A stretch of DNA of 64,000 bases from a virus (Duplodnaviria > Caudoviricetes). The stretch covers positions 1,290 to 65,289 of the IMG/VR virus record IMGVR_UViG_3300009164_000071; one strand, 5' to 3'. A program made the position numbers and the translations under genes. Of this stretch, positions 43,444-62,060 are shown piece after piece. The notes under the pieces were generated by a model. It searched no databases and was not told where the DNA came from. It saw only the letters and a list, made by a program, of their open reading frames with translations. The first letter of the stretch is position 1, and every line of letters starts with the position of its first letter.

Positions 43444-45327
43444 TTAGATTGCGGCTCCTACAAGAATATTATTAATACCACCGCCTGAAATGGTTAGGTT
43501 AATGTTCGTACTTGTAGTTGCGTTGGTTGTATAAGTTTGATTAACTGTTCCATTGTCAGTGAATACCATGCTATTACCTTGTATGGTTAGATATACAGTG
43601 GCTGTGATTGCATCACCTGCATAATTATAGGCAAACAAACTAGCTGTGGTTAGGATGTTTGTTCCTGTATATAAAAGATTCTGCGTTGGCATGACCACAC
43701 TGACCTGTGACGGTAGGTCAAGTGTTAACAGGTGTACTGTATAATTACCTAGTTCACGCCCTTGCATCCATAAACGTCCTCGTGCATCTAAGCCACAGTA
43801 AGACATTTCATAGGGATATACTGAGCTAATATACCAACCACTGGTTGTTGAGAATCTCATAAAATTAGTTTTAGTATAGGTAGGAACTACCATCATATCG
43901 CCTATAGCGTTGAGTGGTAGCCAATCACGTGGCATGTTATAGTTATCTTGGAAAGTAAACCTACTGTGATAAGTTAGTGTACTATCAGTGGCAGTATTGA
44001 TAGTAAATGTCAACATGGTACGCTGTGTACTGGTGTTCCAACGTGTTGGAGCACTACCTTGATGATTAGATTTGTCGCTTAACCAGAAAGTTATGTACCA
44101 CAGGCCGTTGGGCACCGGTTGGAATTGCCATGGTTGAATATGCCATGCGTCTTGACTACTCTGTGCTACTGCCGATCCGCCGGTAATACCATACTTACCT
44201 GCATAGTTGAACAATGCGTAAGCACCCACGCTACTGGTACTACCATAGACCATGGTACAGGTACTTGTGGTTATTGGTGGTGGAATTGATGCACCAGTGG
44301 CTGTGATGTTCAATGGATCCCAACGGAATACCACAGGTGCTAGATTTCCCTGAAAGTCAAAGTGACTGGAATAGAACACACGTTTGTTGCTGGCATCATA
44401 TCTAATATTGCTGGGACGCGAATGTAGATTCCATTCTAGTGAAGCTACAAACGCATTAATATTAGTTGATGTAGTCATGGTTGAATTAGTACCAGCCCAA
44501 CTAATTCTAGTTAACGTATAAGGATTACCGGCGGTGTTATCTTTCATGGTACACCAAACAGTGGCACTGGTTGCAGGCTCTACTCCAACAAAGAATGTTG
44601 TTTGCTGAGTTTGATCCATGGCAGACAAGAAACTAATAGGTCCATTAGTTGCATCATCCCAACGATTTATCAAAGTGACTTCGTCGTGTGGTGCATTGTT
44701 AGTAGCCAAGCCCCATAGACGCTTCCAACGACGTTGCCCGTCAAGTCCCGTGGCAGTCATATCTTGGAAAGTGTCTTCCCAGAAATAATTTTGAGGAAGT
44801 GCCGCGCCACTATTACCGACAGATCCTCTGGTTGTATTGTAGATATAACCCTGTGTTATATCCGGACCAAATATGCCAAATTGTCCAAAATGCTGTCCAG
44901 CAGTTCCACCGATATTAACACCATCATTTGAAAACGGCCAAGTCATCCATGCTCTTTGCGTACTGGTGTTATACCAAGAAACTTTGGCAGGAAAGTTAAC
45001 CGGATCTAAACTGCGATGGAATGAAGAATAGGCATCTCTATCTGCGTTTGTGCCTGTATCACCTGCGGCTCCGGAACACTGAATCGAATTCCCTATAAGT
45101 CTTAGACTTCCATAATATGTTCCCGACCCGTTCCAAGGACTTGGACTCAACGGATTAATCAATAATGAAAAATCTTGATAGTGAAAATATGAGTTAAACT
45201 GTGGGGTTAGGAATGTGGCATCGTGAGCCAGACTAGAAAGATACAGTCTGTTTGTTGCTGTATTTGGATCTTCGATCAAGGGATATATCGCCTGCCCTAA
45301 ATTTCCGCTGATGTGTACTAAAGCCAT
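43444..45327 (-). CDS. ~600-aa appendage protein, paralog 3 (possible beta-propeller plus Ig-like tail)
   Basis: MALVHISG...EDPN, SLDPVN.PAK, PSNIRYD, FYSSHF, YPYEM, VGA.I shared with neighbours. Confidence 0.8.
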   Translation of the reverse strand: MALVHISGNLGQAIYPLIEDPNTATNRLYLSSLAHDATFLTPQFNSYFHYQDFSLLINPLSPSPWNGSGTYYGSLRLIGNSIQCSGAAGDTGTNADRDAYSSFHRSLDPVNFPAKVSWYNTSTQRAWMTWPFSNDGVNIGGTAGQHFGQFGIFGPDITQGYIYNTTRGSVGNSGAALPQNYFWEDTFQDMTATGLDGQRRWKRLWGLATNNAPHDEVTLINRWDDATNGPISFLSAMDQTQQTTFFVGVEPATSATVWCTMKDNTAGNPYTLTRISWAGTNSTMTTSTNINAFVASLEWNLHSRPSNIRYDASNKRVFYSSHFDFQGNLAPVVFRWDPLNITATGASIPPPITTSTCTMVYGSTSSVGAYALFNYAGKYGITGGSAVAQSSQDAWHIQPWQFQPVPNGLWYITFWLSDKSNHQGSAPTRWNTSTQRTMLTFTINTATDSTLTYHSRFTFQDNYNMPRDWLPLNAIGDMMVVPTYTKTNFMRFSTTSGWYISSVYPYEMSYCGLDARGRLWMQGRELGNYTVHLLTLDLPSQVSVVMPTQNLLYTGTNILTTASLFAYNYAGDAITATVYLTIQGNSMVFTDNGTVNQTYTTNATTSTNINLTISGGGINNILVGAAI

Positions 45328-45366
45328 TTTATTCTCCTAAATTTCCTGTTAAATTTTTCATTAGAT
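45314..45366. repeat. 53-bp perfect direct repeat, copy 1 (gene junction)
   Basis: tgtactaaagccattttattctcctaaatttcctgttaaatttttcattagat is identical to 47150-47202. Confidence 0.95.
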
Positions 45367-47163
45367 GTTTGCTCCAACTACAATATTGTTGACACCACCA
45401 CCGAATATAGTCAAGTTAACTGTGGTCCCTGTTAAGGTGTTAGTTGTTGTGGTCAAACTAGTTGTTCCGTTATCAGTGAACAACATGCTATTACCGTTGA
45501 TGCTCAAGTTTGTGACCATGCTGGCCAGTGAGCCTTGTGCATCGAAGACAGATACTGTGGCACTGGTCAAGATGTTTGTGCCAGTGTATGTATAAGTTGA
45601 GCTGGACATAACCACACTGACTGTGTATGGGACCGTTGGTGTTATTAAGTGTATGGCAAAGTTTCCAATTTCAGTGCTTTGTCCCCATAACCGATTCTGT
45701 GAATCTAAGCCCAGTGTTCGCATTTCATAGGGATAGCTGTTGGTCAATCCCCAACCCAGTGTTGGGTTAAATGTAAAAAAGTTAACCTTACTGTAGACTG
45801 GCACAGCCATTTGTGTTCCTTCTGCGTTGATTGGTAAGAATTCTCTTGGAATTTCAAAAACGCTGGGGAATGTGTAAGAACTGTGATAGGTCAAAAATGC
45901 AGTTGATGTTGTATCAGTTGTTGTATTGATACTGTAGGTCATCATGGTACGACGTAGTGGGTTATCCCATCGCGTTGGCGCATTTCCGCCATAGCCTGCA
46001 ATTTTGTCAATGGGCCAGAATGTTAGATACCATGTTGTAGTATTTGCCGGGCGGAACTGCCATGGATGCATACGCCATGAATCAGCGGCAATGGTTGTTT
46101 GGAATGCAGTATTCTGATACAGTTGACTGTAGTTAGTAAAAGTCCCCACTGCATAGACCATGGTGCAGGTTGTTGCTGTGAATAGGCCGTCTGTTCTAGT
46201 TGGATCCCAGGTAAATCTCTGTGGCTTCAATTCGTTCATACCGTCAAAGTGACTGGAGTAGAACACCCGAGCGGTAGCACTGTCATATCGAATATTACTA
46301 GGAGTGGTATGACGATAGGTATAGCCTCCACCGCTAGCACCTACACTACGATCACCTGTACCAAATATTGTAGTTTTTACAGGAGTTATAGGTGCAGGAG
46401 TTGCTGAATATCTATAAATGAAGAAAGGTTCGCCGGTTTGAGTTGGTCTTGATTCAACCATATAAACATTATTAGCAACATCTGCTCCTATAAACCAAGA
46501 GTTAAGTGCTACATCGGCAGCAATACCAGTAAAACCAATATTTGTTGGATTGTCGTAGTTGGTCACACCAATGACGTTGTTGTAGTATGAATTGGCTTGT
46601 TGCACTCCCCAAAGTCTTTGATTAACTGCATCTTCAAAGTATAAAGTGGTTGGCGCATAAACGTTATTATTACTAATATACAATGCGCCTGTTGTTATGT
46701 CTGAGGGATATATTAGATAATTACCTGAACCTTGGGCAGTGGTCCCAACATCTTGCCAGGGGTAGGTCATAATAACTCTGTTGTTGACAGTGTACCAGTT
46801 TCTTTTTGCAGGGTAGTTAACGGGATCTAAACTTGAATGAAATGCCGCCCAATTATCTCGTTGGTTGTTATCAACGCTGGTTTCACTTGTTGTATAACAA
46901 TTAACAGTGGCCTTGATCAATGACATACTTCCGAAACCATTGGCCGGGACAACTGGCAAATTACCAAATGTGTAGGCACTTTGGAACGGGGTGTTGCCTG
47001 TATGATAGTGGAACTGGCTACCAAAAATTGGATTTAGGAAAGTGCCGTCATGCCCTTGTGCTGTAAAAAACAAACGATTTTGAGTGGGATTGGGATCCTC
47101 GATCAACGGTGTTATATTGGCGTAGACCCGAGCCACTGTTCCACTTATATGTACTAAAGCCAT
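45361..47163 (-). CDS. ~600-aa appendage protein, paralog 2
   Basis: Same motif series as 43444..45327 and 47197..49002. Confidence 0.8.
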   Translation of the reverse strand: MALVHISGTVARVYANITPLIEDPNPTQNRLFFTAQGHDGTFLNPIFGSQFHYHTGNTPFQSAYTFGNLPVVPANGFGSMSLIKATVNCYTTSETSVDNNQRDNWAAFHSSLDPVNYPAKRNWYTVNNRVIMTYPWQDVGTTAQGSGNYLIYPSDITTGALYISNNNVYAPTTLYFEDAVNQRLWGVQQANSYYNNVIGVTNYDNPTNIGFTGIAADVALNSWFIGADVANNVYMVESRPTQTGEPFFIYRYSATPAPITPVKTTIFGTGDRSVGASGGGYTYRHTTPSNIRYDSATARVFYSSHFDGMNELKPQRFTWDPTRTDGLFTATTCTMVYAVGTFTNYSQLYQNTAFQTTIAADSWRMHPWQFRPANTTTWYLTFWPIDKIAGYGGNAPTRWDNPLRRTMMTYSINTTTDTTSTAFLTYHSSYTFPSVFEIPREFLPINAEGTQMAVPVYSKVNFFTFNPTLGWGLTNSYPYEMRTLGLDSQNRLWGQSTEIGNFAIHLITPTVPYTVSVVMSSSTYTYTGTNILTSATVSVFDAQGSLASMVTNLSINGNSMLFTDNGTTSLTTTTNTLTGTTVNLTIFGGGVNNIVVGANI

Positions 47164-47202
47164 TTTATTCTCCTAAATTTCCTGTTAAATTTTTCATTAG
47201 AT
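47150..47202. repeat. 53-bp perfect direct repeat, copy 2 (gene junction)
   Basis: Identical to 45314-45366. Confidence 0.95.
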
Positions 47203-49002
47203 ATTTGCTCCTACCGCAATATTATTCATTCCCGCACCGGTTATGGTTAATTTAACCACTGCGCCCGATACCGCATTAGTAGTGGTAGTATAAGTTTTTG
47301 TACCACTATCTGTAAAAATCATGCTATTACCCACCACAGTCAATGTTAGTGTTGATGCAACTAACACCCCACTTGAATTGAACGCAGTTATGTATGCATT
47401 CGTATTTATGTTAGTTCCAATGTAGGTATAACTAGCACTGTCATATCTTATGTTAATTGTCATCGGAGTTGATGTTGTTAACATGTGTACTGAGTAATAA
47501 CCCGAGCCGTCTTTGCCAACTCCCCATACTCTGTTCTGATTATCCAATCCCACTGATACCATTTCATAGGGATAAACATTAGTCAGTGTCCATCCCTGTG
47601 TGGCATCAAACTGATAGAAGTTAGTCTGTCCTGTTGCAGGCGCTACAACCTGTGTGCCGTCACTGTTTATTGGTAAAAAGTCACGTGGCATGTTGGTTGT
47701 GGTATTAAATGTAAAGACGCTATGAAAAGTCAGTGTACTATCTGTAGCAGTATTAATAGAATACGTCATCATAGTTCTTGTAGCAGGTGTACCCCAACGT
47801 GTTAATGCATTGGCGTTATTATGTCCCTTGTCTGTTAACCAATAAGTTATGTACCAAGTTGTGGTATTAGCAGGACGGAATTGCCATGGTTTAATATGCC
47901 AAGCACCACCTGTGTTTGCGCCGCCAGTATTTGGATACTTGGCTGCTCTAGATGTATAGCCATTTGCGGCGGTCACACCACTGTAGACCATGGTGCAGGT
48001 TGTTGCTGTAAAGCAGGTACTGGTATTAAGATCAGTAGGGTTCCACTGATATCGTATGGGCAATAATTCGTTGCTACCGTTAAAGTGACTTGAATAAAAT
48101 ACACGAGAAGTTGCACTGTCGTATCTAACATTGCTAGGGCGGCAATAATTAAAAGCCACGCTGTTCCATCCGTAGCCTAGCAGGCCTGTGGCCAACGGCG
48201 CACCTAGTGTAGATACATAAGAGATAACACCCGCAGGACTGATACGATGAATAGCATAAGGATCACCTACTGTGGCATCTTTATTTCTAACCCACCATGC
48301 ATTATTACCTGTGTCAACTCCGAGGAAGAATGTTGTACCGTCATTGTTGTTTGACAGATGTGTGACGTTAGCGGCCAATACGTTATCATAGTTAGTCACA
48401 TAACTGACATTGTCCATCTGTCCATTAGATGTCTGTAAGCCCCATAATCTAACGTTGGCCACATCTTCATAGAACATGAGATTTGGAAAGTTATTATTAC
48501 TCTGTGCTGTAGAAGTAAAAATAGCACCTGTTGAACTAGTTATGTCTGAGGTATAGATCATGTAGGTATTGAAAGGACCAGTAGCATTATACAAATCCTG
48601 TTGTGGATAAGTTATAATAGCTCTGTTGTTAACTGTGTACCATGAACGCTTGGCAGGATAGTTAACAGGATCTAAACTACGATGGTATCCACCCCATCCA
48701 TCTTTATCAGCATTTGAGCTAGAGTCAGCCGCACGAGGTGTCCAAATTGCAGCCTTGTTAGTTAATAAATTTCCACCAAATAGAGTTGTACCTGCACCTT
48801 GTGGATTTCCATAACCTGTTGACGATAATTGATTAATGTTAATTAAAGATTGATAGTGAAAAGTTTGGTTGAATTGAGGAGTTAGATAATTAGCTTCATG
48901 TGCAACTCCGCTGAGAAAAATTCTGTTAGCAGAAGGATTTGGGTCCTCAATCATAGGGGTGCATTGCAATCCTAAAGTTGAACTAATATGTACTAAAGCC
49001 AT
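47197..49002 (-). CDS. ~600-aa appendage protein, paralog 1
   Basis: Same motif series; starts 1 nt after the stop of the collagen fibre gene. Confidence 0.8.
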   Translation of the reverse strand: MALVHISSTLGLQCTPMIEDPNPSANRIFLSGVAHEANYLTPQFNQTFHYQSLININQLSSTGYGNPQGAGTTLFGGNLLTNKAAIWTPRAADSSSNADKDGWGGYHRSLDPVNYPAKRSWYTVNNRAIITYPQQDLYNATGPFNTYMIYTSDITSSTGAIFTSTAQSNNNFPNLMFYEDVANVRLWGLQTSNGQMDNVSYVTNYDNVLAANVTHLSNNNDGTTFFLGVDTGNNAWWVRNKDATVGDPYAIHRISPAGVISYVSTLGAPLATGLLGYGWNSVAFNYCRPSNVRYDSATSRVFYSSHFNGSNELLPIRYQWNPTDLNTSTCFTATTCTMVYSGVTAANGYTSRAAKYPNTGGANTGGAWHIKPWQFRPANTTTWYITYWLTDKGHNNANALTRWGTPATRTMMTYSINTATDSTLTFHSVFTFNTTTNMPRDFLPINSDGTQVVAPATGQTNFYQFDATQGWTLTNVYPYEMVSVGLDNQNRVWGVGKDGSGYYSVHMLTTSTPMTINIRYDSASYTYIGTNINTNAYITAFNSSGVLVASTLTLTVVGNSMIFTDSGTKTYTTTTNAVSGAVVKLTITGAGMNNIAVGANI

Positions 49003-49003
49003 T

Positions 49004-52000
49004 TTACAAATTCCTTGTGTATAAAAAAGTCACCGCTAAATTTGATCCAGCTAATGCAGTACCAACTGTTCCTACATTAACTCCAAAATAATCCCCTGTG
49101 GCGGCAGTTATAGGAACAGTATAAGCTGTAGAAGTTAACTGCATATTAGGTACAGTTAATGATGCAACTTGTATTCCATTCTTGGTTATTGAAAGAATGA
49201 TCCCTGATCCTATTGGTGCTATATTTACCCGTGCTACAATGTTGAAGATACTGATGTTGGTTGCCGCATACCAAAACATTGCGGCATTGGCTATACTTAA
49301 TTGACCTGGTATAGAATATTGTTTTTCAAATATTGTACCTGTGCTAGATGTAGCTGTACCACTGCCACCACTACCTGCACCCCCGTATACTGATCCAGCT
49401 CCAATAGCACTGCTGTTATCAAACCAAAAATTACTATTTCCGTCGTAGGTATAACGTAATAATACATCGTTGGTAGTATCATACCACCAATCACCTACTG
49501 TAGGATTTGTTGGTGCAGTGGGGCTAGACGTAGATCTAACACCGCCACCAACAATATTTCCACCTACATTTAAGTTTCCATTAATGCCTGCACCGCCAGT
49601 GACAAGTAATGCACCACTGTTAGTACCTGTTGACTGCGTAGGATTTGTAAACCGTGCTACTCCAGGAATCTCACCAAATCGTAGGCCGGCTCCAATAAAC
49701 ACATCGCCGCCGATACCAACACCGCCTCTAACTATCAATGCACCCGTTGTGGTAGACACCGATGTGGCGCTAGATGTAATATTCAACGTATTTGGTATTA
49801 GGCCGCCTGAGAACGTAGCTGAAGTATTAACCACACTGCCATTTGAATAAATGACGCCGGCAACATGCAGATCTCGACCAAATGAACCACCACCAACAAC
49901 GCTTAATGCACCTGTTGTGGTTGAAATAGCATTCGAAGAACTGGTTATAACTAAAGTATTAAATGTACCAGTGGTTGCGCTAAAGTCAATAATGCTGGCA
50001 CTGGCAGTTAGGTTAATTATTCCGCCAATATTAATGTTTCCGCCGAGCCAAATATCTCCGCCAAAAGACGCACCACCTGCAACAATTAAAGCGCCAGTGG
50101 TAGTGCTTGTGCTGTTTGTTGTGGTATTAATATACAATGGTGATGTTATTGTCCCGCCATTAAATCCGCCAACGCCACCCCCGCCTCCACCACTACCAGC
50201 ACCACCAGTAAATAATACACCGTTCTGATAGATGTTTCCGTTGAAATTAATGTCGCCGCCAACGTTAATGCCGCCATTGGGTACAGTTATAGCAGTTGAT
50301 GCCGAAGATAGCGCAACTAAATTAATAAATGTCCCAGTGCTACTACCAAATTTTTGACCGCCTACATATACTGTGCCGCCTACATACAAATCTTGAGCAA
50401 CACCAACTCCGCCCGATACAATTAATGCACCGCTGGTAGTACCTGTTGAATTTGTTGTGTTGCTTGTGCGTAGTGTGCTAGTTGTTATAACACCAAACCC
50501 GCCACCTGCAGAAAGATTTATATCTGCTGAACTTGATATAACAGCAGATCCTGTTCCAACATTTATCGTTCCGCCAACAGTTAAGTCTTTACCTACACCA
50601 ATACCGCCTACAACTGTCAATGCTCCTGTATTGGTGCTAGTGCTGGTTTCCGGTCCAGTTATTTTAATATTGTTAAATGTACCTGTACTAGCAGTAAAAT
50701 CAGTAAAACTACTGCTACCTATTAGATTAAGTGTTCCAGCAAGATTAATATTTCCGCCAACAAACAGATCTTTACCAAACGCGCCGCCACCTGGAATGAC
50801 CAATGCTCCTGTTGTAGAAGTAGTCGGTAATGAATTAAGTGTACTGGTTGACTTAATAAGTGTTATTGTTGCTGTGTTTGCACTAAGGCTAGTAAAAGTG
50901 ACAGCGTTAGTTTGGAAAAAAGTTCCTACAAGATTAAGATTCCCACCAACATACAAATCTCCACCAATACCTGTACCGCCGGTGACCTGCAAGGCACCCA
51001 TTGCATAGGTATTAGCTGATCCAGCTGAGCTGTTGGTTAACTGTACTATCTGATTAGTTGATCCCGCAAATGTTCCGGTTGGACCTTGAGGTCCTTGAGC
51101 GCCAGTATTACCTTGACTTCCTTGAGGTCCTTGTGGACCAGTTGCGCCAGTTGGTCCTTGAGGACCTGTTGCACCTAATGTTCCTTGTACTCCTGAAGCA
51201 CCACTTGGTCCAGTTGGTCCTGTGACTCCGGCCCCGCTAGGTCCTTGAGGTCCGGTGACTCCGACTCCGCTAGGTCCTTGAGGTCCGGCATCTCCTTGAC
51301 CTCCCTGCGGTCCTTGTGGTCCTTGGGCGCCTTGTGGTCCTTGAGCACCTGTGGCACCTGTGACACCAGATGGCCCTAAATTAGCATAGGCCGCAATAGT
51401 AGCTGTTGTAATAATAACAGATCCACCAATTGTAGAAGTTTGCTCAATATTAACAGACCCACCAAACCCTGCACCACCTGCAACAATCAATGCGCCTGTG
51501 GTAGTCGATGTTGACTCAGCATTGTTTGAAGTTTGAATAACATCATCAGTTTGTACCAATGTAGTAGTGACCGTGGTATATTGAATTGTTAACTTCTGAG
51601 CAACAATTTCTCCGCCGACGTACAAGTTTCCGCCAATACCAACCCCACCGGCAACTACTAACGCACCTGTGATTGTTGAACTTGACTCAGTGTTAGCCAC
51701 AACACTGACTTTTCCAGTGTTATCAATAGTAAGGCTAGATGTAGCACTTGCTCCTATTGTACCAATATCGAATGACGAACCATTAACAGTAAATGGTGCG
51801 TAGGCATTACCGGCACTGTTAAGACTGGTTATGTTATTGTTTCCAGCAGTACTTCCTACTGTGAATGCCCACTGGTCTCCTGCGCCAGAACCTTTCATCT
51901 GCAGGGCGTATTGATTTCCTGAACCTATTTCTGTTATAACCAGTGATGAGGCATTTAATGAGCCACCGGCATATAAGCTGCCGCCAATTCCTACTCCACC

Positions 52001-53323
52001 TGCAACTACCAAACTACCAGTCGATGTGCTGTTTGAATTTGTTGTATTGCTTAAACGTAGTGTACTAGTTGACAATATTCCATAGCCGCCACCTGCAGAA
52101 AAGTTTATATCTCCCGTACTTGCTAGTGTAGATACTCCTGGGCCTTGTGCTGAAATTGTACCGCCAACATTAAGGTCGCCGCCAACACCAACTCCGCCTA
52201 GTACAGTTAACGCACCACTGGTAGTTCCAGTTGATAGTGTAGCATTATTAATAAAAATTGTAGAAGTAGTTGTGCCTGTTATTGCACCAGATGGACCTGC
52301 TGGACCTGTAGTACCAATAGATCCCTGTGCGCCAACTCCAGTTGGTCCAGTAGGACCTGTATAACCTTGAGCACCTTGCGGTCCTGTGACACCCTGTGGT
52401 CCTTCATCGCCTTGAACTCCTTGTGGTCCCTGAGGTCCTGTGACACCCTGAGGTCCTGTGACGCCTTGTACTCCCTGTGGTCCTTGAGGTCCAGTGACGC
52501 CTTGTGGTCCGCTAGGACCCTGTGGTCCAGTGACTCCTTGAACTCCTTGAGGGCCTTGTGGTCCTTTGGGGCCGCTTGGTCCACTTGGACCTAAATAAGC
52601 AAATTGTGCAATTGTTGCTGTTGTTATTACAACAGCACCCGCAATAGTTGATGTTTGACCTACATTGATTGCGCCACCAATACCAACGCCGCCTGTGACT
52701 ACTAACGCACCTGCTGTTGTGCTAGTTGAAGATGTGGTATTTGTTATTGATACAGCATTATCAGTGGTTGCGCCTCTATTTGTTATACTCTGTAATGTAC
52801 TTGTATTCCAAATAGTTATTGCGCCTGTACTGGTGTTAACAGCAGTATCAGTTCCTGCAAATATAGTAGTTGTTTGATTTATTAAATCTTGTAAATATTG
52901 ACTAACTGTAGCAGTTGTTAATATTAAAGCACCGCCAACATATGACGATGTACCAACATACAATGCGCCACCAATGCCGACGCCTCCTGCAACTTTTAAT
53001 GCACCTGTAATTGTAGAAGTTGAGGAACCGGTACTGTTAACAAGTATTGTTTGAAACGTGCCGGTGGTTGCAGTAAAGTCAGTAAAACTAGTACTAGCAG
53101 TTAGATTTAGTGCTCCAACAAGGTTAATGTTTCCACCAACCCAAAGATCTCCGCCAATACCGGATCCGCCTTTGACAATTAAGGCGCCGGTAGCGGTCGA
53201 AGTGCTGGCATCGGCAGTATTAATTGATACACTGCCTGGTACAGTAAAGTTGCCGTTAGCATCGATGATCGCATTATCGCCAACGCTGAGGCCATTCTTT
53301 ACTTCAAAATTCTTGTTTGACAT
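49004..53323 (-). CDS. Long fibre protein with two collagen segments (1439 aa)
   Basis: Starts [12 protein letters not shown]; many STxTGAL.V.GG.GI repeats; two Gly-X-Y tracts; GDWWY module; C-terminal domain. Confidence 0.88.
52773..52855. repeat. 83-bp repeat shared between two fibre genes
   Basis: One mismatch to 54165-54247; a more diverged copy at about 53886-53968. Confidence 0.9.
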
Positions 53324-53392
53324 TGGTTCATTTTCCCCAAATTCTAACTATATTTAGCCCTTAGAGTAAAATGTTGGTAAACCGGTCTAGAA

Positions 53393-55897
53393 TTATATGT
53401 TGTTTAATAACGTTTTTACAAACAGCACTGTGGTAGTTCCTGTTGACTGCGGAGACATTGCTATTTGTACAGTGCCACTACTAACCACAGAAGTAAACGT
53501 ACCTACTGTAGTTCCCATTTTAATATCGCCAAACTGTATGCAATCACTGGTTATTCCGTTATGGATAACATTTAGCGTACATACATGGTAGCCTAGCGGG
53601 CTAGTCATTTGTATGGTATAGCTGGCACTGCGGAAACTTGCTGTTGAAAAACTATCTAAGATAATCTGCGAAGTTCCTGTTGTAGTATATACACCAGAAT
53701 CTGTTTGGTAGCTAGTCCCTGAAATTGTACCAGAGAACACACCGACAAAGTTTGTAGCATTTACAGTTCCACCAACACTCAATGATCCGCCAATGCCAAC
53801 ACCACCTGTGACCACTAACGCACCTGTTGTTGTGCTAGTTGAAGATGAAGTATTTGTTATTGATACAACATTATTAGTGGCTGAGCCTCTATTTGTTATA
53901 CTTTGTAATGTACTTGTATTCCAAACAGTTATTACGCCTGTACTAGTACTAATAGCAGTATCAGTACCTGCAAAGATACTTGTTTGATTAGAGTATTGGT
54001 TAATAGTAGCAGTGGTCAGTATCTGCTGATTACCTTGATATAAAGTGCCGCCTAGATATAAATCACCACCAATTCCAAGGCCGCCACCTATAGTTAATGC
54101 ACCTGTTGTTATGCTAGTTGAAGACGACGTGTTTGTTATCGATATGGCATTATTAGTAGAAGATCCTCTATTTGTTATACTCTGTAATGTACTTGTATTC
54201 CAAATAGTTATTGCGCCTGTGCTGGTGTTAACAGCAGTATCAGTTCCCGCAGATATAACTGTTGGAGTAAAACCTGTATATAGTCCAACAGTAGCGGTTG
54301 TTAGTATTTCTGCGCCACCAATAAATGACGTTTCCCCTAAATATAGTGCGCCACCGATGCCGACTCCACCGCGAACTTGTAAAGCACCTGTGTTGGTTGA
54401 TATAGAAGTTGCTGTATAGTTGATGGTCAAACTAGTAGAAGTAAACACTGCTCCTTGAGTTGACCAATACTGACCACCTGGTGCTATCTGAAGCTGATAA
54501 TTCTCACTATATATGGTATTGTTTGCGGCTCCGCCTACTATCCATACACGATCGCCAACAGTCCCGAAAGAAGCAACAGATCCGCTAACATCTGTTGCAA
54601 ATCTAACTTGTCCAGTTGAAGATATATTTGTAGCGGTTATTATGCCATCTACAAATACATTTCCACCAATGCCAACCCCACCAGCGACTTGTAGGGCACC
54701 CGAAGTGGCATTATGAACGCTTGCACTACTTGCTAACTTAATAGATCCAGTTTTAAATGTACCGTAGGTTGCGCTGGTAAATGTACCTGTGTTAGATTCA
54801 GCACCCGAATTATACCAATGTAGTTCTTTTGTAGTATTATCTAAAACTAGAGCCGCATTGGTATCAGTGCTAGCAGTATAGTAATGGAATCTAAATCCAA
54901 TATCTTTACCGTCATTGGATGTCCACTGGCTGTCTACTCCTCCGGGAGGTGCGTGAATTTCAATAAGATTATCAGTGTAAACAGTGTTTGTACTAAGAAC
55001 ATAGGTTGCTGTACCGTTAAATGTGACTACTCCACCTAATGTTAAATTACCTTTAAGTTCTAGATCAGTGCCATCAAATAGTAAATTATTTGTACTAGTT
55101 GCCAAGCCACCGCTGTTATATAATACTTGTCCGCTAGTTCCACCTACAGGTCCTGTAGGGCCAACAACCCCTTGTGGTCCTTCAATACCTTGAGGTCCTT
55201 GTGGTCCTTCAATACCTTGCGGTCCTTGAACGCCTTGTGGTCCTTCAATACCTTGCGGTCCTTGAGGTCCTTCCGGACCCATTTCGCCTTGAGGTCCTTG
55301 AGGTCCTTCAATGCCTTGTGGTCCTTGAGGTCCTTCCGGACCCATTTCGCCTTGAGGTCCTTGCACCCCTTGTGGTCCTTCAATGCCTTGAGGTCCTTGA
55401 GGTCCTTGCACCCCTTGTGGACCACTTGGTCCCAGATAAGCAAATTCTGCTATTGTTGCGGTGGTTATTATTTGTGATCCAGCAACAAAACTTATTTCAT
55501 TAACATATAGTGCGCCACCAATTCCCACGCCGCCGACAACAGTCAACGCACCCGTGTCAGTTGATGACGATACTGTAGCATTTGTAGTTTTGATTATGTC
55601 ATCAGTAGTGACCAATGTTGTTGTGACTGTAGTTAACTCAACGGTTAACTTTTGAGCAAAAATTTCCCCGCCAACATATAAATTTCCGCCAATTCCTGCC
55701 CCACCAGCAACAGTCAACGCACCAGAATTAGTTGAAGTAGAATTTGCAGTTCCTATAACATTAACTCGATTTGCAGTTAATGTATTAACACTGGTTAGGG
55801 CAACACGCACCCAAGCGGTCAGACTATCGGACCATCGATAGGATATATTATTAACTATTTCTATTTGTCCGTTAGCGGGCGATGAAGGAAACGACAT
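53393..55897 (-). CDS. Fibre protein with collagen segment (834 aa)
   Basis: MSFPSSP..W module, GPQ collagen tract, GAL.V.GG repeats, C-terminal FRSASY.IQ domain. Confidence 0.88.
55145..55432 (-). repeat. Collagen-coding tandem repeat (9-bp-based units)
   Basis: Repeated GGACCTCAA/GGACCACAA/GGTATTGAA units encoding (GPQ/GIE/GEM/GPE)n. Confidence 0.9.
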
Positions 55898-55907
55898 TCT
55901 CTAATCC

Positions 55908-56297
55908 TTAAGTTAGTTCAACCCAATTGGTTGTTTCTTCATTCCACACATAAGGCTTACCGTCAGTGGGCATGGCAACAGGAGGATTCCATAAACAAGT
56001 TTCCTCGTCTAGTATCCATGATGTGTAGGGTTGGGGAGGAATAAATGCATCACGTTGCAAATCATAGGTATACCCAATTCCTGCATAATTTTTACGTAGC
56101 GCAACACCGCCATCTGGCTGGCCGTCTGGTCCAAGATGAACACCGCCTTGTGTGTTGTAGCTAGTCTTAATCCATGTACCACCAATTAGATTTCGACAAA
56201 ACATTGCTCCTACTTCTTCAGTAGGTTCTTCGTTATTGTGTACTACAATAACCCTTAGAACAATATTATTTTTATCAATTTCTGCGTAATGTGCCAT
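55908..56297 (-). CDS. Conserved phage protein, putative fibre assembly chaperone
   Basis: MAHYAEID..N.V.RVIV, W..TSYN, RKNYAGIG.TYD, DAFIPP.PY.SW; Trp-rich end. Chaperone role is inference. Confidence 0.65.
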   Translation of the reverse strand: MAHYAEIDKNNIVLRVIVVHNNEEPTEEVGAMFCRNLIGGTWIKTSYNTQGGVHLGPDGQPDGGVALRKNYAGIGYTYDLQRDAFIPPQPYTSWILDEETCLWNPPVAMPTDGKPYVWNEETTNWVELT

Positions 56298-56309
56298 TTT
56301 ATTCCTTGA

Positions 56310-56633
56310 TCATCTAAAATTATATATTGGCCCAGACATGTCTATCCAATTGGTGTTCTCACCGTCAAAAGTATATCTAAAGACAATATCAAGAGTAGGG
56401 TGATACCAGATATCACCGGGAGTTGCATTTTGTGGAGCAGTTGATGTTGTGGTAGTTCTAATACTACCGCCGACTACGGTGCCGCCTATATTAACATCGC
56501 CAACGATGCCAACGCCACCTGAAACTAGGAGTGCACCTGTGTCAGTGCTGGTTGAAACGGTATCGCCTAGAACCGTAGCTGTGGTTGAGACCACAAGGCC
56601 ATGTTTGACCCTAAAATCATTATTAACTGCCAT
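56310..56633 (-). CDS. Minimal fibre connector (107 aa)
   Basis: ATG at 56633 gives MAVNNDFRVKHGL; one GAL.V.GG repeat; GDIWY module. Confidence 0.75.
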   Translation of the reverse strand: MAVNNDFRVKHGLVVSTTATVLGDTVSTSTDTGALLVSGGVGIVGDVNIGGTVVGGSIRTTTTSTAPQNATPGDIWYHPTLDIVFRYTFDGENTNWIDMSGPIYNFR

Positions 56634-56692
56634 TAGCTTCCCTTTCCACAAAACGGCTCTAAATTGTATTATGAATATTTATCAATTGTACA

Positions 56693-56728
56693 AAAACAAA
56701 TGGAGCCTTTCGAGCTCCATTTAGTTTT
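56693..56728 (-). terminator. Rho-independent terminator
   Basis: Minus strand AAATGGAGC-TCGAAAG-GCTCCATTT-GTTTTT after the stop of 56751..59861. Confidence 0.75.
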
Positions 56729-56750
56729 AAGACTGCGTTAAAGTTTTAAA

Positions 56751-59700
56751 TTATGCAGTTATACCTAGTCGGACAACTTTAATTGTCATAGCAGTTGCAC
56801 TATTTGGTGTAAACGTTAGTGTCACAATACCAGCTCCAATAGAAGCATCAAATGTTCCAAGTGATCCGTTGTTTGTATTAATTCCGTACTCACTTAGGTA
56901 TACGCTGGTACCTATCCAGAACATGCTTATTTCTGTGACATAAACACTGCCGCTGTCTATAATCTGTATTAGATACTTAGATGTTCTATACTCTGACGAA
57001 TTGTAGGTATCTAGAGACACTTGTCCCGAACCGCTGATTGCCGCGCTTGTATAGCTAGCTAATACAATGTCATTGCTGTAAATTGCTGGAACTACTTGAG
57101 AACTTACAACAGTGCCAATAGTTAATGCGTTGGTAAATGTTCCTCGTCCAGTGACTTTGATGTCATTAAACTCAGCGACTCCCGTAGAGTCTATTTTATT
57201 AGCGTAGATTGTACCTGTAGACCGGATGTCAACAAATGTACCAGTACTACCACTAATTGTATCAATGCCGGTTAAACTTGCGCCTTTTACGTAGATAGTT
57301 CCTTCAACATACAAGTCAGCATTAATAGTTGTGTCAGAATCAACAAACAGAGTTCCACCAATATTAACGGCGCCGCCAATACCAGCACCGCCTACAACTG
57401 TTAAAGCACCACTTGTTGTGCCAGTACTGGAAGTTGCACTATTGGAAACAATATTACCAGCCACTGTCCAGTTGCCAACACCACTTAGACTTGCTACTTC
57501 AGTTTCGGCACCATACCATTTAAACTTAAACGAGTCGCCGTATTCCGGAATGCTGGACCACATTGTGGCAGCATTAATACCCATAGCGTAATCAACTGTA
57601 GCACCAGTTAGTGAAGGATACAATACAAGTTTAGTACCTTCACTGCGGGTAGTAAATGCCGGAGCACCTGTACCTACAGCGGCCCAATCAATTCTATTGC
57701 TTGTGGCGCCGTTTAAATATACTTGGCTTTGTCCGCTAACTGCGCTACCTGCCGCAGTTGAAATCAATGTGCCACCTATTGTAGCAGTTGTGCCAACATA
57801 CAAGTCTTTGGCAATTTTAGTTCCGCCGGATACTTTTAATGCACCGTCGTCAACGCCACCGTTTGTAGCGGCAGTACCCGAAACATTAACTTTTGTTGTT
57901 GCTGTAAAAACTTCAGTTGTAATGTTTTTAGCATATAGTTGACTACCAGCAACATCGAATGTAAAATCTGCATTGTCAGTTAGTCTAAGGCTGCTATTAG
58001 CAAATGTGACACGGCCGGCGACTAAGCTTCTTAATCTTGCAGTATTAGCTTCAATGTATGTGTTGCTACTTAATTCCACAGTTCCTGTATTACTAAATTT
58101 AAATGTATCAGCTCCAACAGTTAGTGTTATACCGGTAGCATCAGCTGTGACATAATTTGTATTGCTATAATTTAATTTAACACTAGTGTCACTCCATAGA
58201 CCAATACTTTTCCCTGAGGCAGATGCAACTGCATTGTCGGAACCGTAAGTTCCGGAGTTGTTGCCGCCAGCACGGACATCAACACCGTCAACATGGAAAA
58301 TAAGATTGTCGTAATTATACAACAAGTGGTTTGTTAGTGTACTTGTACTAGTATTGAGTTGATACGGAATGTAGTACTTTTCACCACCACGTATGTTGGG
58401 TGCATTATTAGCAGACGCTAATACCCACTCAAGTGTGCCGTTGCTAGCATTATAAGCTAAAACTTGGTCTTGTGCTGTAGGGGCTGCAATGAACGCTGTA
58501 GTGTTTACCGCTGATTGATATGCAATCCTAAGATTGGCGCCGCCTGCTAAGTTTGTAGAAGTATTTGCAAAAGCAATACGGCCTTCAACCTGACTTAATG
58601 ATGGGTTCCAGGCTAAACTACTATCAACTAACTTGTGATCTGCATCAGAAAATACAATACGGTTTTCGTGTAAAGTAGTGACTTTAACATCTGCACCTTG
58701 TACCGTAGTTGACGCCGTGACATTAGTTGCGGAGAATGTTGTGCCATCCCAAGTTAAACTTGCGCTGTCAACTAAATTATGACCAGCATCAGAAAATACT
58801 AAACGTGTATTAGATAACGATCTAACATGCATTGTTTGAGCACTAACATCAACGCCTGCATATAAACTTAGACCAATACCAGCTCCGCCTGCTACCTGTA
58901 GAGCACCTGAAGTTGTATTTGATGCATCTGTCGTACTAGTTAATTCAGATGAAAGAGATTTTGTTCCTGCATAGGCAGAGCCTGAAAAAGATGTTGTCCC
59001 TTCAGCACCGTTTGCATAGAATGAAAATACACCCGTATCTTGCGTTAACACAAGTGCCGCATTTTTATCAGCACCGCCATTGTAATAGTGGAAACGTAAT
59101 CCAATGTCCTTGCCGTCTGTACTTGACCATGTTGCACCTACTCCGCCAGGAGGGGTGTGCAGTTCAAGAATGTTATCAGTGTAAACTGTGTTTGTAGAAT
59201 ATACGTATGTTGCAGGACCGTTAAATATCACATCGTTATTAAAGACTGCTGGTCCATTAACTGTTAAATTTTGACCAATACCAACACCGCCAGCTACATA
59301 TAATGCGTTGGTAGCAGTAGTAGAAGTGCTAGATACCGAACTGTTAACAATTAAGTTATCGCCAACGTATACTCCACCTGTGACTTTTAATGCTCCTGAG
59401 CCACCACCTGCGCTGGCAGCGGTAGTATTGTTTGTTATCTGTGTAATTCCGGCTACGTCTAACGTAGAACCAAAATCTACAGCACCGCTAACTGATAACT
59501 TATTTGATCCTGTGACAATAATTGCACCAGTAAATGTATTCAGTGCGCCTTCAAAATTACTGTTCTGACCTACATTCAGTGTACTTAATAATTTTGTAGC
59601 ACCAGTTGCTGTAAATTTTCCACCAACGGTTGCATCTAAACTAATGTAGGCATTATTACTTGCTATTACATCACCTAACAGATTAGTTTTTCCGTAGATT

Positions 59701-59861
59701 GTTGCAGTTGATCCAACTAATATGTCTTTAGCAAAACCCGCCCCACCGTTGACCTGTAGTGTACCAACGTTGTTGGTGCTAGTGGTTATCGGGCTTGAAG
59801 TCCCTTGTACATTAAGACCTGATTTTACAATAAAGTCTTGAGTGATTGATGTTAGTGCCAT
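56751..59861 (-). CDS. Long fibre protein (1036 aa)
   Basis: Starts MALTSITQDFIVKSGL; GAL.V.GG repeats; C-terminal YRTSKYLIQ domain. Confidence 0.85.
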   Translation of the reverse strand: MALTSITQDFIVKSGLNVQGTSSPITTSTNNVGTLQVNGGAGFAKDILVGSTATIYGKTNLLGDVIASNNAYISLDATVGGKFTATGATKLLSTLNVGQNSNFEGALNTFTGAIIVTGSNKLSVSGAVDFGSTLDVAGITQITNNTTAASAGGGSGALKVTGGVYVGDNLIVNSSVSSTSTTATNALYVAGGVGIGQNLTVNGPAVFNNDVIFNGPATYVYSTNTVYTDNILELHTPPGGVGATWSSTDGKDIGLRFHYYNGGADKNAALVLTQDTGVFSFYANGAEGTTSFSGSAYAGTKSLSSELTSTTDASNTTSGALQVAGGAGIGLSLYAGVDVSAQTMHVRSLSNTRLVFSDAGHNLVDSASLTWDGTTFSATNVTASTTVQGADVKVTTLHENRIVFSDADHKLVDSSLAWNPSLSQVEGRIAFANTSTNLAGGANLRIAYQSAVNTTAFIAAPTAQDQVLAYNASNGTLEWVLASANNAPNIRGGEKYYIPYQLNTSTSTLTNHLLYNYDNLIFHVDGVDVRAGGNNSGTYGSDNAVASASGKSIGLWSDTSVKLNYSNTNYVTADATGITLTVGADTFKFSNTGTVELSSNTYIEANTARLRSLVAGRVTFANSSLRLTDNADFTFDVAGSQLYAKNITTEVFTATTKVNVSGTAATNGGVDDGALKVSGGTKIAKDLYVGTTATIGGTLISTAAGSAVSGQSQVYLNGATSNRIDWAAVGTGAPAFTTRSEGTKLVLYPSLTGATVDYAMGINAATMWSSIPEYGDSFKFKWYGAETEVASLSGVGNWTVAGNIVSNSATSSTGTTSGALTVVGGAGIGGAVNIGGTLFVDSDTTINADLYVEGTIYVKGASLTGIDTISGSTGTFVDIRSTGTIYANKIDSTGVAEFNDIKVTGRGTFTNALTIGTVVSSQVVPAIYSNDIVLASYTSAAISGSGQVSLDTYNSSEYRTSKYLIQIIDSGSVYVTEISMFWIGTSVYLSEYGINTNNGSLGTFDASIGAGIVTLTFTPNSATAMTIKVVRLGITA

Positions 59862-59876
59862 TTTGTTTTCCTAATT

Positions 59877-60734
59877 TTACGTCGCCATTCCGGTGCGCAT
59901 CACGCTTATTACCTTATTTGAGGCCATGTACGGAGTAAAATATAGTCTAACTGTATTACTTTGTACATCGGCCGCAAACACTCCTAATTCCCCATTTGTT
60001 GTTAAAACCCCGTATTCTGTTGCAAATACTGTTCCTATGTTATCTACTAACAACAAGATTTCAATAACTTGAAACTTTGCTCCTGGGCCAGTATCATCAT
60101 CAATTTGTATAAGATACTTTGCCGCTCTAAATTCTAATACCGAATACGTGTCAACAACAACTGTCGCTGTGGTATTTATGCTGACCAGCGTAGAATCGAA
60201 GACTGTATCTGCTATTTTAATGCTTTCTGCATTAAGTCGACCACCAATTCCTACTCCACCTGTGACTACTAATGCTCCAGTTATAGTTGATACTGAAGTA
60301 GTAGTATTTGATATATATAGGGCTTGATTGGTAGTTGCACCACGCACTGTCAGTGATTGCAAGGTTGAAGTATTGTTTATTGTTAAAACACCAGTGCTGG
60401 TATTAGCTACAATACTAATGTCTACTCCAGGAAGTACATAAGTTCCTAGACTAGAAGTAGTTAAAATTGACCTACCTTGTTGCGTTATTGAGCCACCGAC
60501 ATTTAAATCTCTTCCAATTCCAACGCCTCCGGTGACTACTACAGCGCCTGAAGTAGTTGATGTTGAATTAGTTGAAGTAGATACAAATAATTGTTGTGTT
60601 GCTGTTATAACAGCACTGATCACCCCGCCACTTATTGCAGGTCTTACCCACGCATATCCATTCCAATTGTATGTCACTGATCCAATGACAACTGTTTGGT
60701 TAGGCGTTGGGTTTGTCGGAAATAATGTTGCCAT
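59877..60734 (-). CDS. Fibre connector protein (285 aa)
   Basis: MATLFPTNP..W module; C-terminal FRAAKYLIQ domain. Confidence 0.8.
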   Translation of the reverse strand: MATLFPTNPTPNQTVVIGSVTYNWNGYAWVRPAISGGVISAVITATQQLFVSTSTNSTSTTSGAVVVTGGVGIGRDLNVGGSITQQGRSILTTSSLGTYVLPGVDISIVANTSTGVLTINNTSTLQSLTVRGATTNQALYISNTTTSVSTITGALVVTGGVGIGGRLNAESIKIADTVFDSTLVSINTTATVVVDTYSVLEFRAAKYLIQIDDDTGPGAKFQVIEILLLVDNIGTVFATEYGVLTTNGELGVFAADVQSNTVRLYFTPYMASNKVISVMRTGMAT

Positions 60735-60746
60735 GTTCTTTTCTCT

Positions 60747-61664
60747 TTATGCTAAGGCAGTAAATTGTATCCATACAGTACTAGTACCGTCTTGTACATA
60801 TTGTAGGGCCGCACCTATACTAGGAATAATCCAAACTTCTCCTACCTTAGGGTCAGTTGGTTCGACACCAGGAGGGTCTCCAAAATATACATTAGGGCTA
60901 TACAATAATCCGCCTAAATTACTATTACCGTCTGCACTATGTACACTTCCTCGAGTTCCTATACCACCGTAGACAGTCAAGGCGCCGGTAGTAGTTGAAG
61001 TAGATACAGTACTACTTGTTATTGCCATGACAGGCACCGATAAAGTTCCTGTTGGATTATTATAATTAAACGAATAACTGCTACTAGCAGTGGTATATTC
61101 CCCAATTTGTTTAGTCATCATGGGATAATATATGCTAGACGACGTTAAACTAACAAATAAATTATCTGAATTAGTTGCGGTCGTAGCACGACTGGCTGAG
61201 AATGATCCCACTGACAGCCACGCAGGAGCGGTTCCGGTAGATACTAGAACATACCCGCTAGTTGAAATTCCTAGAAAAGTTGTTCTTCCTGCCGCAGTCT
61301 GATAAGGTATACTTCCTTGGGCGCCGCCTGTTATATTAGTTGATGTGCTAACAGTTCCGGTAATAGTATTTGTTGCAGTCATTGCACCTGTTAGATACAA
61401 ATCTCCTCTAATAGATACCACAGCCGATCCTGTTGTAGCAATAACAATATTCTGTGATGCAACTTGATTTGATATTGTTCCACTGGTAAACAGTAAATTA
61501 CCTAAACTTGAACTGTAAGTAGCGGTTCTAGTACTGTCAACAATGAGAGTATAACCAGTAGCAGTGGTAGCAGTTGGAGGGAAACTAGGTTGAGCAGTGC
61601 TCAACTTGATAAAAGTTCCGCTACCGTATGGTCTAAGTTGTGATCCGCTTAATAAACTAGGCAT
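60747..61664 (-). CDS. Fibre protein (305 aa)
   Basis: GG..GSIPYQ and GALTV.GG motifs; C-terminal P..GEVW...WIQ module. Confidence 0.8.
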   Translation of the reverse strand: MPSLLSGSQLRPYGSGTFIKLSTAQPSFPPTATTATGYTLIVDSTRTATYSSSLGNLLFTSGTISNQVASQNIVIATTGSAVVSIRGDLYLTGAMTATNTITGTVSTSTNITGGAQGSIPYQTAAGRTTFLGISTSGYVLVSTGTAPAWLSVGSFSASRATTATNSDNLFVSLTSSSIYYPMMTKQIGEYTTASSSYSFNYNNPTGTLSVPVMAITSSTVSTSTTTGALTVYGGIGTRGSVHSADGNSNLGGLLYSPNVYFGDPPGVEPTDPKVGEVWIIPSIGAALQYVQDGTSTVWIQFTALA

Positions 61665-61676
61665 GTTTAATCTCTA

Positions 61677-62060
61677 TTATTCGTTGGCTGTTTCTAGAAC
61701 ACTTAGTGTTAGTTGCATCGAACCATTACTAGTCCCGTAGCAGATGATACTATCTGATGTTTCTACAATCATTTTACCAAAAATTGGGTTAGCCGCATCG
61801 TTGGCAGGGATTTGAAATTCCTTTACTAAGTATGTGCCTACTCCTCCGGGCTGTGCGCCATTTCCTTGAGGATCGGCTAGTATTGCTCTATTACGATAGT
61901 GCATAAACGTCACAGTTTGTGTGGCTGTGGAGATATTACTAACCTGCGCCATCAATATAACCGCTGTCACTCCACTTGGTGCTGTATATACTTTTGTAGT
62001 TGTCACAGTTGATACTGCAGATGTTTTTGTTTTAAATGTGTTTAATGGAATTAATGCCAT
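61677..62060 (-). CDS. Small beta-sandwich adaptor-like protein (127 aa)
   Basis: MALIPLNTFKT...VYTAP.G...QVSN...IP.ND...D.I...LSVLET; aligns with 33203..33562. Confidence 0.75.
   Translation of the reverse strand: MALIPLNTFKTKTSAVSTVTTTKVYTAPSGVTAVILMAQVSNISTATQTVTFMHYRNRAILADPQGNGAQPGGVGTYLVKEFQIPANDAANPIFGKMIVETSDSIICYGTSNGSMQLTLSVLETANE

Follow-up and report, generated by a model that had tools for sequence, protein, structure and literature searches.

The stretch of DNA analysed here, referred to as the window, comprises 64,000 nucleotides (nt) and makes up most of the 65,289-base viral record IMGVR_UViG_3300009164_000071 of IMG/VR, for which CheckV gives a completeness of 19%. It encodes a terminase, a tail sheath, a tube and a sheath stabiliser of an uncultured, contractile-tailed phage of the T4 type, and the tail genes are followed by a long minus-strand run of fibre-like genes. 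Within this run three proteins end in the same domain, marked by the motif (F/Y)RxxxYxIQ, and each of the three genes is followed by a gene whose product begins with the motif (D/N)FxVKxGL. The C-terminal domain is referred to below as the socket and the N-terminal peptide as the plug. All socket and plug genes of the window lie on the minus strand. No near-identical DNA was found for the window in the phage collection, and a tblastn search with the first of the socket proteins, of 285 amino acids (aa), matched the phage S-SM2 only.

The first socket gene (59877-60734) codes for the 285-aa adapter protein, the last ~105 aa of which form socket copy 1 (59880-60194) with the motif FRAAKYLIQ at 60131-60105. 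The next gene codes for a 1036-aa fibre segment (56751-59861) that carries both elements. Its N-terminus, MALTSITQDFIVKSGL, contains plug 1, DFIVKSGL (59837-59814), and its last ~105 aa are socket copy 2 (56754-57068) with the motif YRTSKYLIQ (56990-56964). Plug 2, DFRVKHGL (56618-56595), belongs to a 107-aa protein (56310-56633). The third socket is located in an 834-aa collagen-repeat fibre protein (53393-55897; Pfam Collagen, E 2e-14), again in the last ~105 aa (53396-53710), with the motif FRSASYTIQ at 53635-53609. It is followed by a collagen-repeat fibre protein of 1439 aa (49004-53323; Pfam Collagen, E 2.3e-18) with plug 3, NFEVKNGL (53311-53288), at its N-terminus. The distance between the stop of the socket gene and the start of the plug gene is 15, 117 and 69 nt for the pairs 285/1036, 1036/107 and 834/1439, respectively. 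It was found that the socket motif stands 70-75 residues ahead of the stop in all three proteins, that each socket copy ends 0-1 residues before the stop, and that the plug motif begins at residues 5-9 of all three following genes. The last ~105 aa can be aligned over their full length, the identity to the 285-aa copy being 38% for the 1036-aa protein and 24% for the 834-aa protein, and a search within the same genome matched the 834-aa copy to copy 1 with an E-value of 8.9e-6. The first-pass annotation, made from the letters alone, had described a shared beta domain of ~95 aa at the gene ends 59877, 56751 and 53393; these ends are correct, and an all-beta domain of ~100 aa is present at each of them.

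The gene with plug 2 starts with a TTG at 56651 in the open reading frame (ORF) list and would then code for 113 aa. An ATG at 56633 gives the beginning MAVNNDFRVKHGL and a length of 107 aa, and this is the likely true start, because a purine-rich stretch lies upstream of it and relatives of the gene have the same start. These relatives, found at the same position, code for 125-190 aa. A GC-rich, terminator-like hairpin with a T run can be read at 56700-56735, in the 117-nt gap after the 1036-aa gene, and a ..ATAAATA.. stretch is seen ahead of the plug-2 gene. The partners of the second joint (1036 and 107 aa) may be on separate transcripts.

A six-frame scan of the 64 kb found three occurrences of [FYW]R..xY.IQ, only at the three socket ends, and three of [DN]F.VK.GL, only at the three plug starts. 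By chance 0.09-0.11 occurrences of the socket motif would be expected per window, as estimated from residue frequencies and from 300 shuffles; the expectation for the plug motif is 0.004 from residue frequencies and 0.0 in 300 shuffles. The plug start is absent from every other large fibre-like ORF of the window. Thus two earlier statements, that the plug gene is immediately next to the socket gene in three of three cases and that neither motif has any other context in the window, are borne out for all three pairs. A repeat search detected no DNA repeat common to the three junctions, where the repeats are collagen triplets and a beta-helix unit; the conservation is therefore at the protein level.

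For the identity of the domain, 79 related viral loci were gathered and 60 domain copies below ~70% identity were aligned. The sole Pfam match in the 285-aa protein is C-terminal. Its socket copy scores 20.6-22.0 bits against PF23618 (T4_gp9_10_C), which is under the gathering cutoff of 25; 19 of the 60 copies match this family at E<=0.01 (best 1.7e-6), and six further members of the socket family gave nothing against Pfam at E<=0.001. The 60-copy profile found a single match in the whole PDB, residues 180-278 of the 288 residues of T4 gp9 (E 2.7e-4). A profile of the three window copies gave chance matches only (rhizopuspepsin, E 0.46-1.4). On direct comparison by hhalign the 60-copy profile and gp9 aligned with a probability of 76% (E 2.3e-5, 31% identity over 74 columns), and a scan of the T4 genome with the socket profile found gene 9 only. 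The corresponding hhalign probability for T4 gp10 was 0.7%; gp10 chains are not among the listed fold matches of Foldseek and VIA-align, but a likeness at the family level could still exist.

The AlphaFold2 model of the socket has eight strands and a mean predicted local distance difference test score (pLDDT) of 97.1. Foldseek placed chain LA of PDB entry 9f4a first (303 residues, E 5.9e-6) and T4 gp9 second (E 1.7e-5). Entry 9f4a is a baseplate of a Klebsiella phage KP1 variant, and its chain LA is taken as the gp9 counterpart because the alignment covers its last ~120 residues, as in gp9. The best match by VIA-align was T4 gp9 (1qex_A, residues 176-284; Z 13.7, root-mean-square deviation 1.8 A, 102 of 105 residues aligned, 22% identity), followed by 9f4a_LA (Z 12.0) and by C-terminal domains from a number of tailspikes and from one fibre (Z 7.1-11.1), with unrelated folds at 5.9 or below. 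The domain is an eight-stranded antiparallel beta domain that superposes on the C-terminal domain of gp9 (residues ~167-288). By fold it belongs with the gp9 C-terminal domains (ECOD 'gp9 C-terminal domain-related'), and in sequence it is a distant relative of gp9. The socket family is large, its cluster representatives numbering 8,995 at E<=1e-3 and 5,910 at 1e-10, and it is almost unannotated, the Pfam matches being below threshold or lacking.

A count of co-adjacency in public phage genomes had been suggested as a check in the first-pass annotation. In the 79 loci, genes were called by a longest-ORF rule on the match strand with a minimum of 60 aa, and the first 30 residues of the next gene were scored as a strict, medium or loose plug or as none; the counts leave out six socket genes with no further gene behind them in the locus, and next genes that are truncated where the locus stops. 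The domain lies within 25 residues of the C-terminus in 115 of 117 domain-bearing genes. After a socket (109 pairs) the score was strict in 31 cases, medium in 41, loose in 21 and none in 16, that is, 93 of 109 are plug-like. After non-socket genes (270 pairs) only 9 are plug-like (1 strict, 0 medium, 8 loose and 261 none). When the sockets were clustered at 60% identity, 18 of the 35 clusters had a strict or medium plug, 8 a loose one and 9 were without a plug. The reverse search, which started from a plug alignment of nine rows, matched at least 599 stretches, and 56 were confirmed with a 45-residue query. In all 56 the motif stands at residues 4-14 of a gene; 51 of these genes follow a socket, three have no upstream sequence and two do not follow a socket (51 of 53), although one of these two has a socket two genes upstream. 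Pooled, the two sets give 137 distinct pairs, of which 65 are strict, 37 medium, 19 loose and 16 without a plug; the median gap is 33 nt for strict and medium pairs. Searches of five large viral records in full, three of them at least 92% complete, yielded six strong sockets and six matches of the plug profile that take in its plug part, each directly downstream of a socket; the remaining matches of the plug profile in these records are to the beta-helix repeat only.

A tree of 105 sockets, made by a quick method from related sequences, contains several separate clades, all of which keep the pairing. The adapter-type clade, in which a short protein precedes a long one (26 rows; support 99 in the Shimodaira-Hasegawa-like approximate likelihood ratio test), is paired throughout with plugs that have a hydrophobic residue after F. 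In the clade of long-fibre sockets, to which the 1036-aa socket belongs, the plugs mostly have K or R at this place. Proteins of 145-148 aa with little beyond the socket form a third clade and keep the pairing as well. Cultured phages provide further cases: gp333 of S-SRM01 ends in a socket and gp334 starts with ..NFKVKNGL 35 nt later, and in S-TIM5, near 65.2-65.7 kb, one socket is followed by an 81-aa gene starting with ..HFHIKHGL. In the viral contig of locus L071 the order is socket gene, 297-aa gene and then the plug gene, MANQNNFVVKNGL; this locus and L103 indicate that one gene can intervene between the partners. The end of the 297-aa protein resembles an intramolecular-chaperone domain.

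The plug has a possible counterpart in the protein that is carried by gp9 in T4. The product of T4 gene 34 begins with MAEIKREFRAEDGL, which includes ..EFRAEDGL.., and the gp34 homologue in PDB 9f4a has ..HFRATNGL.. near its N-terminus. An F, a small hydrophobic residue two positions on and the pair G-L are common to gp34 and the window plugs at an equal distance from the N-terminus. A gp34-type N-terminus would carry F-x-(V/A)-x-x-G-L at ~residues 7-14, and the motif positions are common to the window plugs, T4 gp34 and the 9f4a homologue, the likeness being a short one. The loose plug motif was not found within 28 residues after any of 189 internal (cis) copies of the domain. The plug is therefore a feature of free N-termini specifically and not a linker in general use. 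The same count (0/189) rules out the idea that these are split genes, in which the plug would be the linker after the domain in proteins that are otherwise uninterrupted.

The prediction of a domain trimer with three peptides, another check proposed in the first-pass annotation, was run on a socket part, residues 105 to 1 from the end of the 285-aa protein (60-row alignment), and a plug part, residues 1-45 of the 1036-aa protein (26-row alignment), each in three copies. The predicted complex scored 0.88 (runs 0.88, 0.88 and 0.90), and the best of three controls scored 0.00. Of 80 solved complexes in the calibration 58 came up to the score mark, as against 2 of 110 mismatched pairs. The runs agreed in at least 80% of contacts, with a pLDDT of at least 68 for the partner. 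The confident interface involves plug residues 3-14 and 19, including D-F-I-V-K-S, and socket residues 44, 48, 55-65 (a strand with conserved T-E-Y-G) and 74-77. The model thus supports binding of the plug to the socket.

Four independent lines of evidence, namely the homology with gp9, the gp34-like peptide, the adjacency seen in both directions in many divergent viral contigs and two cultured cyanophages, and the predicted complex of three sockets and three plugs, support the earlier suggestion that the domain is a socket catching the peptide with which the next fibre segment begins, the binding being predicted. It is probable that a gp9-type socket captures the N-terminal plug of the next gene product and that the fibres are built of separately encoded segments in gene order. 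In the arrangement that we infer, the ~100-aa eight-stranded domain would form a trimer where its fibre protein ends distally, like that of T4 gp9, and the next gene product would present a free N-terminal plug, consisting of (D/N)-F-x-V-K-x-G-L-x-V preceded by ~5-9 residues. Three plug strands would dock onto the socket trimer in direct contact, and the fibre could continue coaxially from the joint into the next trimeric beta-helical or collagen-like shaft. The 285-aa protein would take the part of gp9 and bear the 1036-aa segment, to whose own socket the 107-aa piece would attach, and the 834-aa protein would bear the 1439-aa protein. The use of the joint three times in one phage is what suggests an assembly from separately encoded segments in the order of their genes.

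Several observations weigh against this reading and have to be set beside it. The complex is a prediction, and its own alignments and its three-plus-three composition differ from the conditions under which the complex tool was calibrated. Part of the score may reflect likeness to solved complexes, because 9f4a holds chains of the gp9 (LA) and gp34 (Le) types and 9x3r holds gp34. Conservation is no higher in the interface columns than elsewhere in the socket (entropy 2.01 vs 2.05, p 0.42). The most conserved socket residues, D15, R23, Y27 and Q30, lie outside the predicted interface; the R, Y and Q of the signature (F/Y)RxxxYxIQ are among these most conserved positions, but they are not on the predicted contact surface. 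It is more likely that the conserved D, R, Y and Q hold the fold or the trimer together. The likeness to gp34 is confined to a four-position motif, the loose form of which occurs in ~3% of control N-termini; the plug profile gave no match in the T4 genome, where gp34 went undetected, and gp34 was not among its PDB matches. The pair counts are not independent, because the loci were retrieved by patterns that contain the motifs and are phylogenetically related.

Adjacency is also not universal. That the socket 'always' precedes a plug gene does not extend beyond the window, since 16 of the 137 distinct pairs are without a plug and some sockets are unpaired or distant from their partners. In S-SM2 the terminal socket SSM2_107 has a neighbour without a plug, and the sole plug gene, SSM2_032 (..NFVVKNGL), is ~60 kb away. 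The terminal sockets of S-TIM5 gp024 and of Vibrio phage D506 gene 0032 have no neighbour on the same strand. A gp34-like N-terminus was not found in phage D506 with the T4 peptide or the plug profile, a search that at first missed the plug of S-SRM01 gp334 too. T4 genes 9 and 34 are themselves ~63 kb apart. Because the partners can be distant, as in T4 and S-SM2, adjacency is common but not required, and co-occurrence in a genome is the better criterion. Among the best 150 of the 8,995 representatives, 77 have a single copy of the domain, which is terminal in all 77, and 73 have tandem arrays of 2-10 copies; on local mapping, 46 of 71 multi-copy proteins end in a copy. Two or three internal tandem copies were seen in S-SM2 (NC_015279, 71358-72395) and S-SRM01 (NC_070963, 106204-106833), in giant open frames of 4159 and 3898 aa. 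The same fold is terminal in the podophage tailspikes 6e1r, 6c72, 5w5p and 8oq0 and in the Klebsiella fibre 7xy1, and for the terminal fold of tailspikes the literature, in its available portions, proposes trimerisation or receptor binding. Given the unpaired sockets, the tandem arrays, the tailspike ends and a listing of the fold among receptor-binding modules, the domain is therefore not solely a socket.

These same facts form the basis of the chief competing explanation, in which the C-terminal domain is mainly a module for folding and trimerisation or for distal receptor (carbohydrate) binding, the plug is just the N-terminal cap customary in this class of beta-helical fibres, with its attachment at another place such as the baseplate, and the adjacency is mere synteny, a conserved order of tandem fibre genes. 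The tailspike ends, the tandem arrays and unpaired sockets, and the absence of special conservation at the predicted interface are all in its favour. The C-terminal domain of gp9 is also credited with folding and trimerisation, and the available text of one study infers the same role for RaK2 gp529 (PMC10253068). In addition, the accessible part of a preprint lists 'gp9 C-terminal domain-related' among the C-terminal receptor- or carbohydrate-binding modules (bioRxiv 10.64898/2026.05.12.724579). Weighing against synteny are a plug that is nearly confined to genes behind a socket (72 of 73 strict or medium plugs of the first locus set, 51 of 53 when the search began from the plug and six of six in the five records) and a pairing that persists across socket clades of differing architecture, including the proteins of 145-148 aa. 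Other fibre-like genes of the window have the same beta-helix repeat and no plug, and in the complex model it is the motif itself that meets the socket, the controls being at 0.00. Trimerisation is moreover compatible with the role of a socket, since both are credited to T4 gp9. We therefore regard synteny without contact as improbable, though it is the alternative that deserves most attention.

A second alternative accepts the binding but assigns the plug to a socket other than the upstream one; for example, all plugs could compete for one baseplate-proximal socket and give rise to alternative fibres. The three plugs are alike, the complex model covers one cognate pair, and the partners are not neighbours in T4, in S-SM2 and in one case in S-TIM5. 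The numbers are nevertheless one to one, three and three in the window and six and six in the five records, and the clade-specific residue after F, as read from the quick tree of related sockets, fits a co-divergence specific to the pair. Non-cognate binding is thus very unlikely. Fibre genes are mosaic, and the least credible view, which can hardly be entertained, takes the gene ends as recombination cassettes for the swapping of fibre modules with no protein contact needed: the 834-aa and 1036-aa genes do share a 94-nt segment with 78% identity (54934-55027 and 59138-59231; family D8), a sign of some DNA exchange or duplication in the cluster, but no direct DNA repeat joins any two junctions, the socket copies are just 24-38% identical as proteins, the spacers differ (15, 117 and 69 nt), and the conservation lies in residues and fold and not in DNA. 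The D8 segment encodes a similar block in both proteins.

Capture of the plug by the upstream socket, the reading that we prefer, can be compared with known systems. The socket role of gp9 and the gp10-like docking modules of branched tailspike complexes are established. [quoted passage not shown] Gene 9 of T4 follows a baseplate-wedge gene, and the 285-aa gene likewise lies downstream of a baseplate-wedge-like gene (phrog_13163/32294), which is two genes upstream of it. They differ in that gp9 has an N-terminal coiled coil and a middle XD1 beta-sandwich, which bind gp7, whereas the sockets of the window's fibre segments sit on beta-helix or collagen-like shafts, in that T4 has a single baseplate joint whereas the joint occurs three times in one gene cluster here, and in that genes 9 and 34 are far apart whereas each window socket is directly upstream of its partner; the plug profile of the window, moreover, does not reach gp34.

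In cyanomyoviruses, gp9 homologues were earlier seen to adjoin or to be fused with fibre genes, namely P-SSM4 orf081/orf082 and P-SSM2 orf298 (Sullivan et al. 2005), and the neighbour of the gp9 homologue in Prochlorococcus myoviruses was proposed as an analogue of gp34, according to the available text (PMC1079782). These T4-like cyanophages thus also have a gp9-type socket gene beside a fibre gene; that study compared whole ORFs, and its available text gives no plug motif, serial reuse or statistics (PMC1079782). In the Felixounavirus Bas63, as far as the consulted portion of the report goes, the long tail fibre platform consists of a gp9 homologue under the N-terminal domain of the long fibre (PMC12609058). 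There too a gp9 homologue is the seat for the N-terminus of a long fibre, but the accessible portion describes a single baseplate-bound platform and, as the partner, a folded baseplate-binding domain at low local resolution. The names 'gp9' and 'gp34' in Sf14 and A-1(L) follow the numbering of those phages and have no bearing on the T4-type pair. No paper describing a gp9-gp34 junction was found for PDB 9F4A, 9X3R, 9MKB or Lilla1.

Small trimeric beta modules are known as docking platforms from the gp10-like XD2/XD3 domains of CBA120 TSP4/TSP2, G7C gp66 and RaK2 gp528. On these jellyroll modules a further fibre or spike, itself trimeric, is seated across the threefold axis, as described in the available parts of two reports (PMC8825819, PMC10253068). 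They are N-terminal and branching and receive folded head domains, whereas the window module is C-terminal, forms end-to-end joints and has a short peptide as its partner; gp10 also has no sequence link to the window domain at the hhalign probability given above. The tailspikes and fibres of the Acinetobacter phages P1, Fri1, AM24 and APK09, Klebsiella phage Kp9 gp42 and RaK2 gp529 have the same C-terminal fold in a trimeric receptor-binding protein. Their likeness to the window domain (Z 7.1-11.1) is lower than that of gp9. For RaK2 gp529 the proposed role is trimerisation (PMC10253068, available text), and the preprint on Klebsiella receptor-binding proteins, in its accessible part, classes the ECOD gp9-C-terminal group as receptor-binding (10.64898/2026.05.12.724579). 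The plug motif, its near one-to-one pairing with the socket and the serial reuse of the joint on shafts were not found in the literature searched, which included few subscription journals and no supplements.

Tail fibres decide which hosts can be attacked, and how the fibre genes of most uncultured phages are joined and ordered is obscure. If the gp9-type socket and the (D/N)FxVKxGL plug form a physical joint, the order of assembly would be readable from sequence. The attachment principle of T4 gp9 and gp34 would then reach beyond one joint at the baseplate and apply to a connector that can be used repeatedly between segments of a fibre. The pair consists of a defined short peptide and a domain, and it could be tested by binding or structural work, for example in the cyanophages S-SRM01 and S-TIM5.

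Another motif, P-x-N-P..G-(D/Q)..W/V....Y-x-(W/Y)....W, here called the hairpin motif, recurs on the minus strand in the genes at 60747-61664, 59877-60734, 56310-56633 and 53393-55897, and further in those at 49004-53323 (residues 1271-1300), 33566-34357 and 27025-27507. It is C-terminal in the 305-aa and 107-aa proteins and N-terminal in the 285-, 834-, 263- and 160-aa proteins, the 263-aa protein having it at both ends; in the 305-aa and 834-aa proteins it was seen by eye and falls outside the regular expression. The hairpin motif may be a second type of joint. It is conceivable, if rather doubtful, that the socket and plug are a portable connector for very long fibres, possibly alternating with the hairpin joint, in which case a single serial chain, with ~4,000 residues in each strand, could be made up of the proteins of 305, 285, 1036, 107, 834 and 1439 aa. 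If this were true, gene ends by themselves could reveal in what order fibres are put together in thousands of uncultured phages.

The genes around the joints deserve mention. Between the plug-2 gene and the 834-aa gene lies a gene for a 129-aa protein (55908-56297, minus strand; phrog_7759, E 2.1e-43), a possible assembly factor. Three tandem proteins of 627, 600 and 601 aa (43444-45327, 45361-47163 and 47197-49002, minus strand) are encoded downstream of the 1439-aa fibre. They all begin with MALVHIS.. and end with ..NN I.VGA.I, two of them match phrog_20698, and their appearance is that of paralogous distal or tip proteins. A 127-aa protein (phrog_1276) is encoded at 61677-62060, upstream of the 305-aa gene; a 126-aa protein of S-TIM5 that comes after the plug gene (locus L153, 1756-2136) resembles it by eye. 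The fibre cluster also contains an ORF of 3019 aa (34369-43428, minus strand). An ORF of 1743 aa (27545-32776, minus strand) has a glycine-rich C-terminal part, a G+C content of 0.48-0.49, which is higher than in the rest of the window, and a strong negative GC skew of -0.23 to -0.25 compared with the rest. Between the tail module and the fibre module a Nol-like carbamoyltransferase is encoded on the plus strand (16827-18668; phrog_1601, E 1.4e-167), which the PHROGs list gives as an auxiliary metabolic gene.

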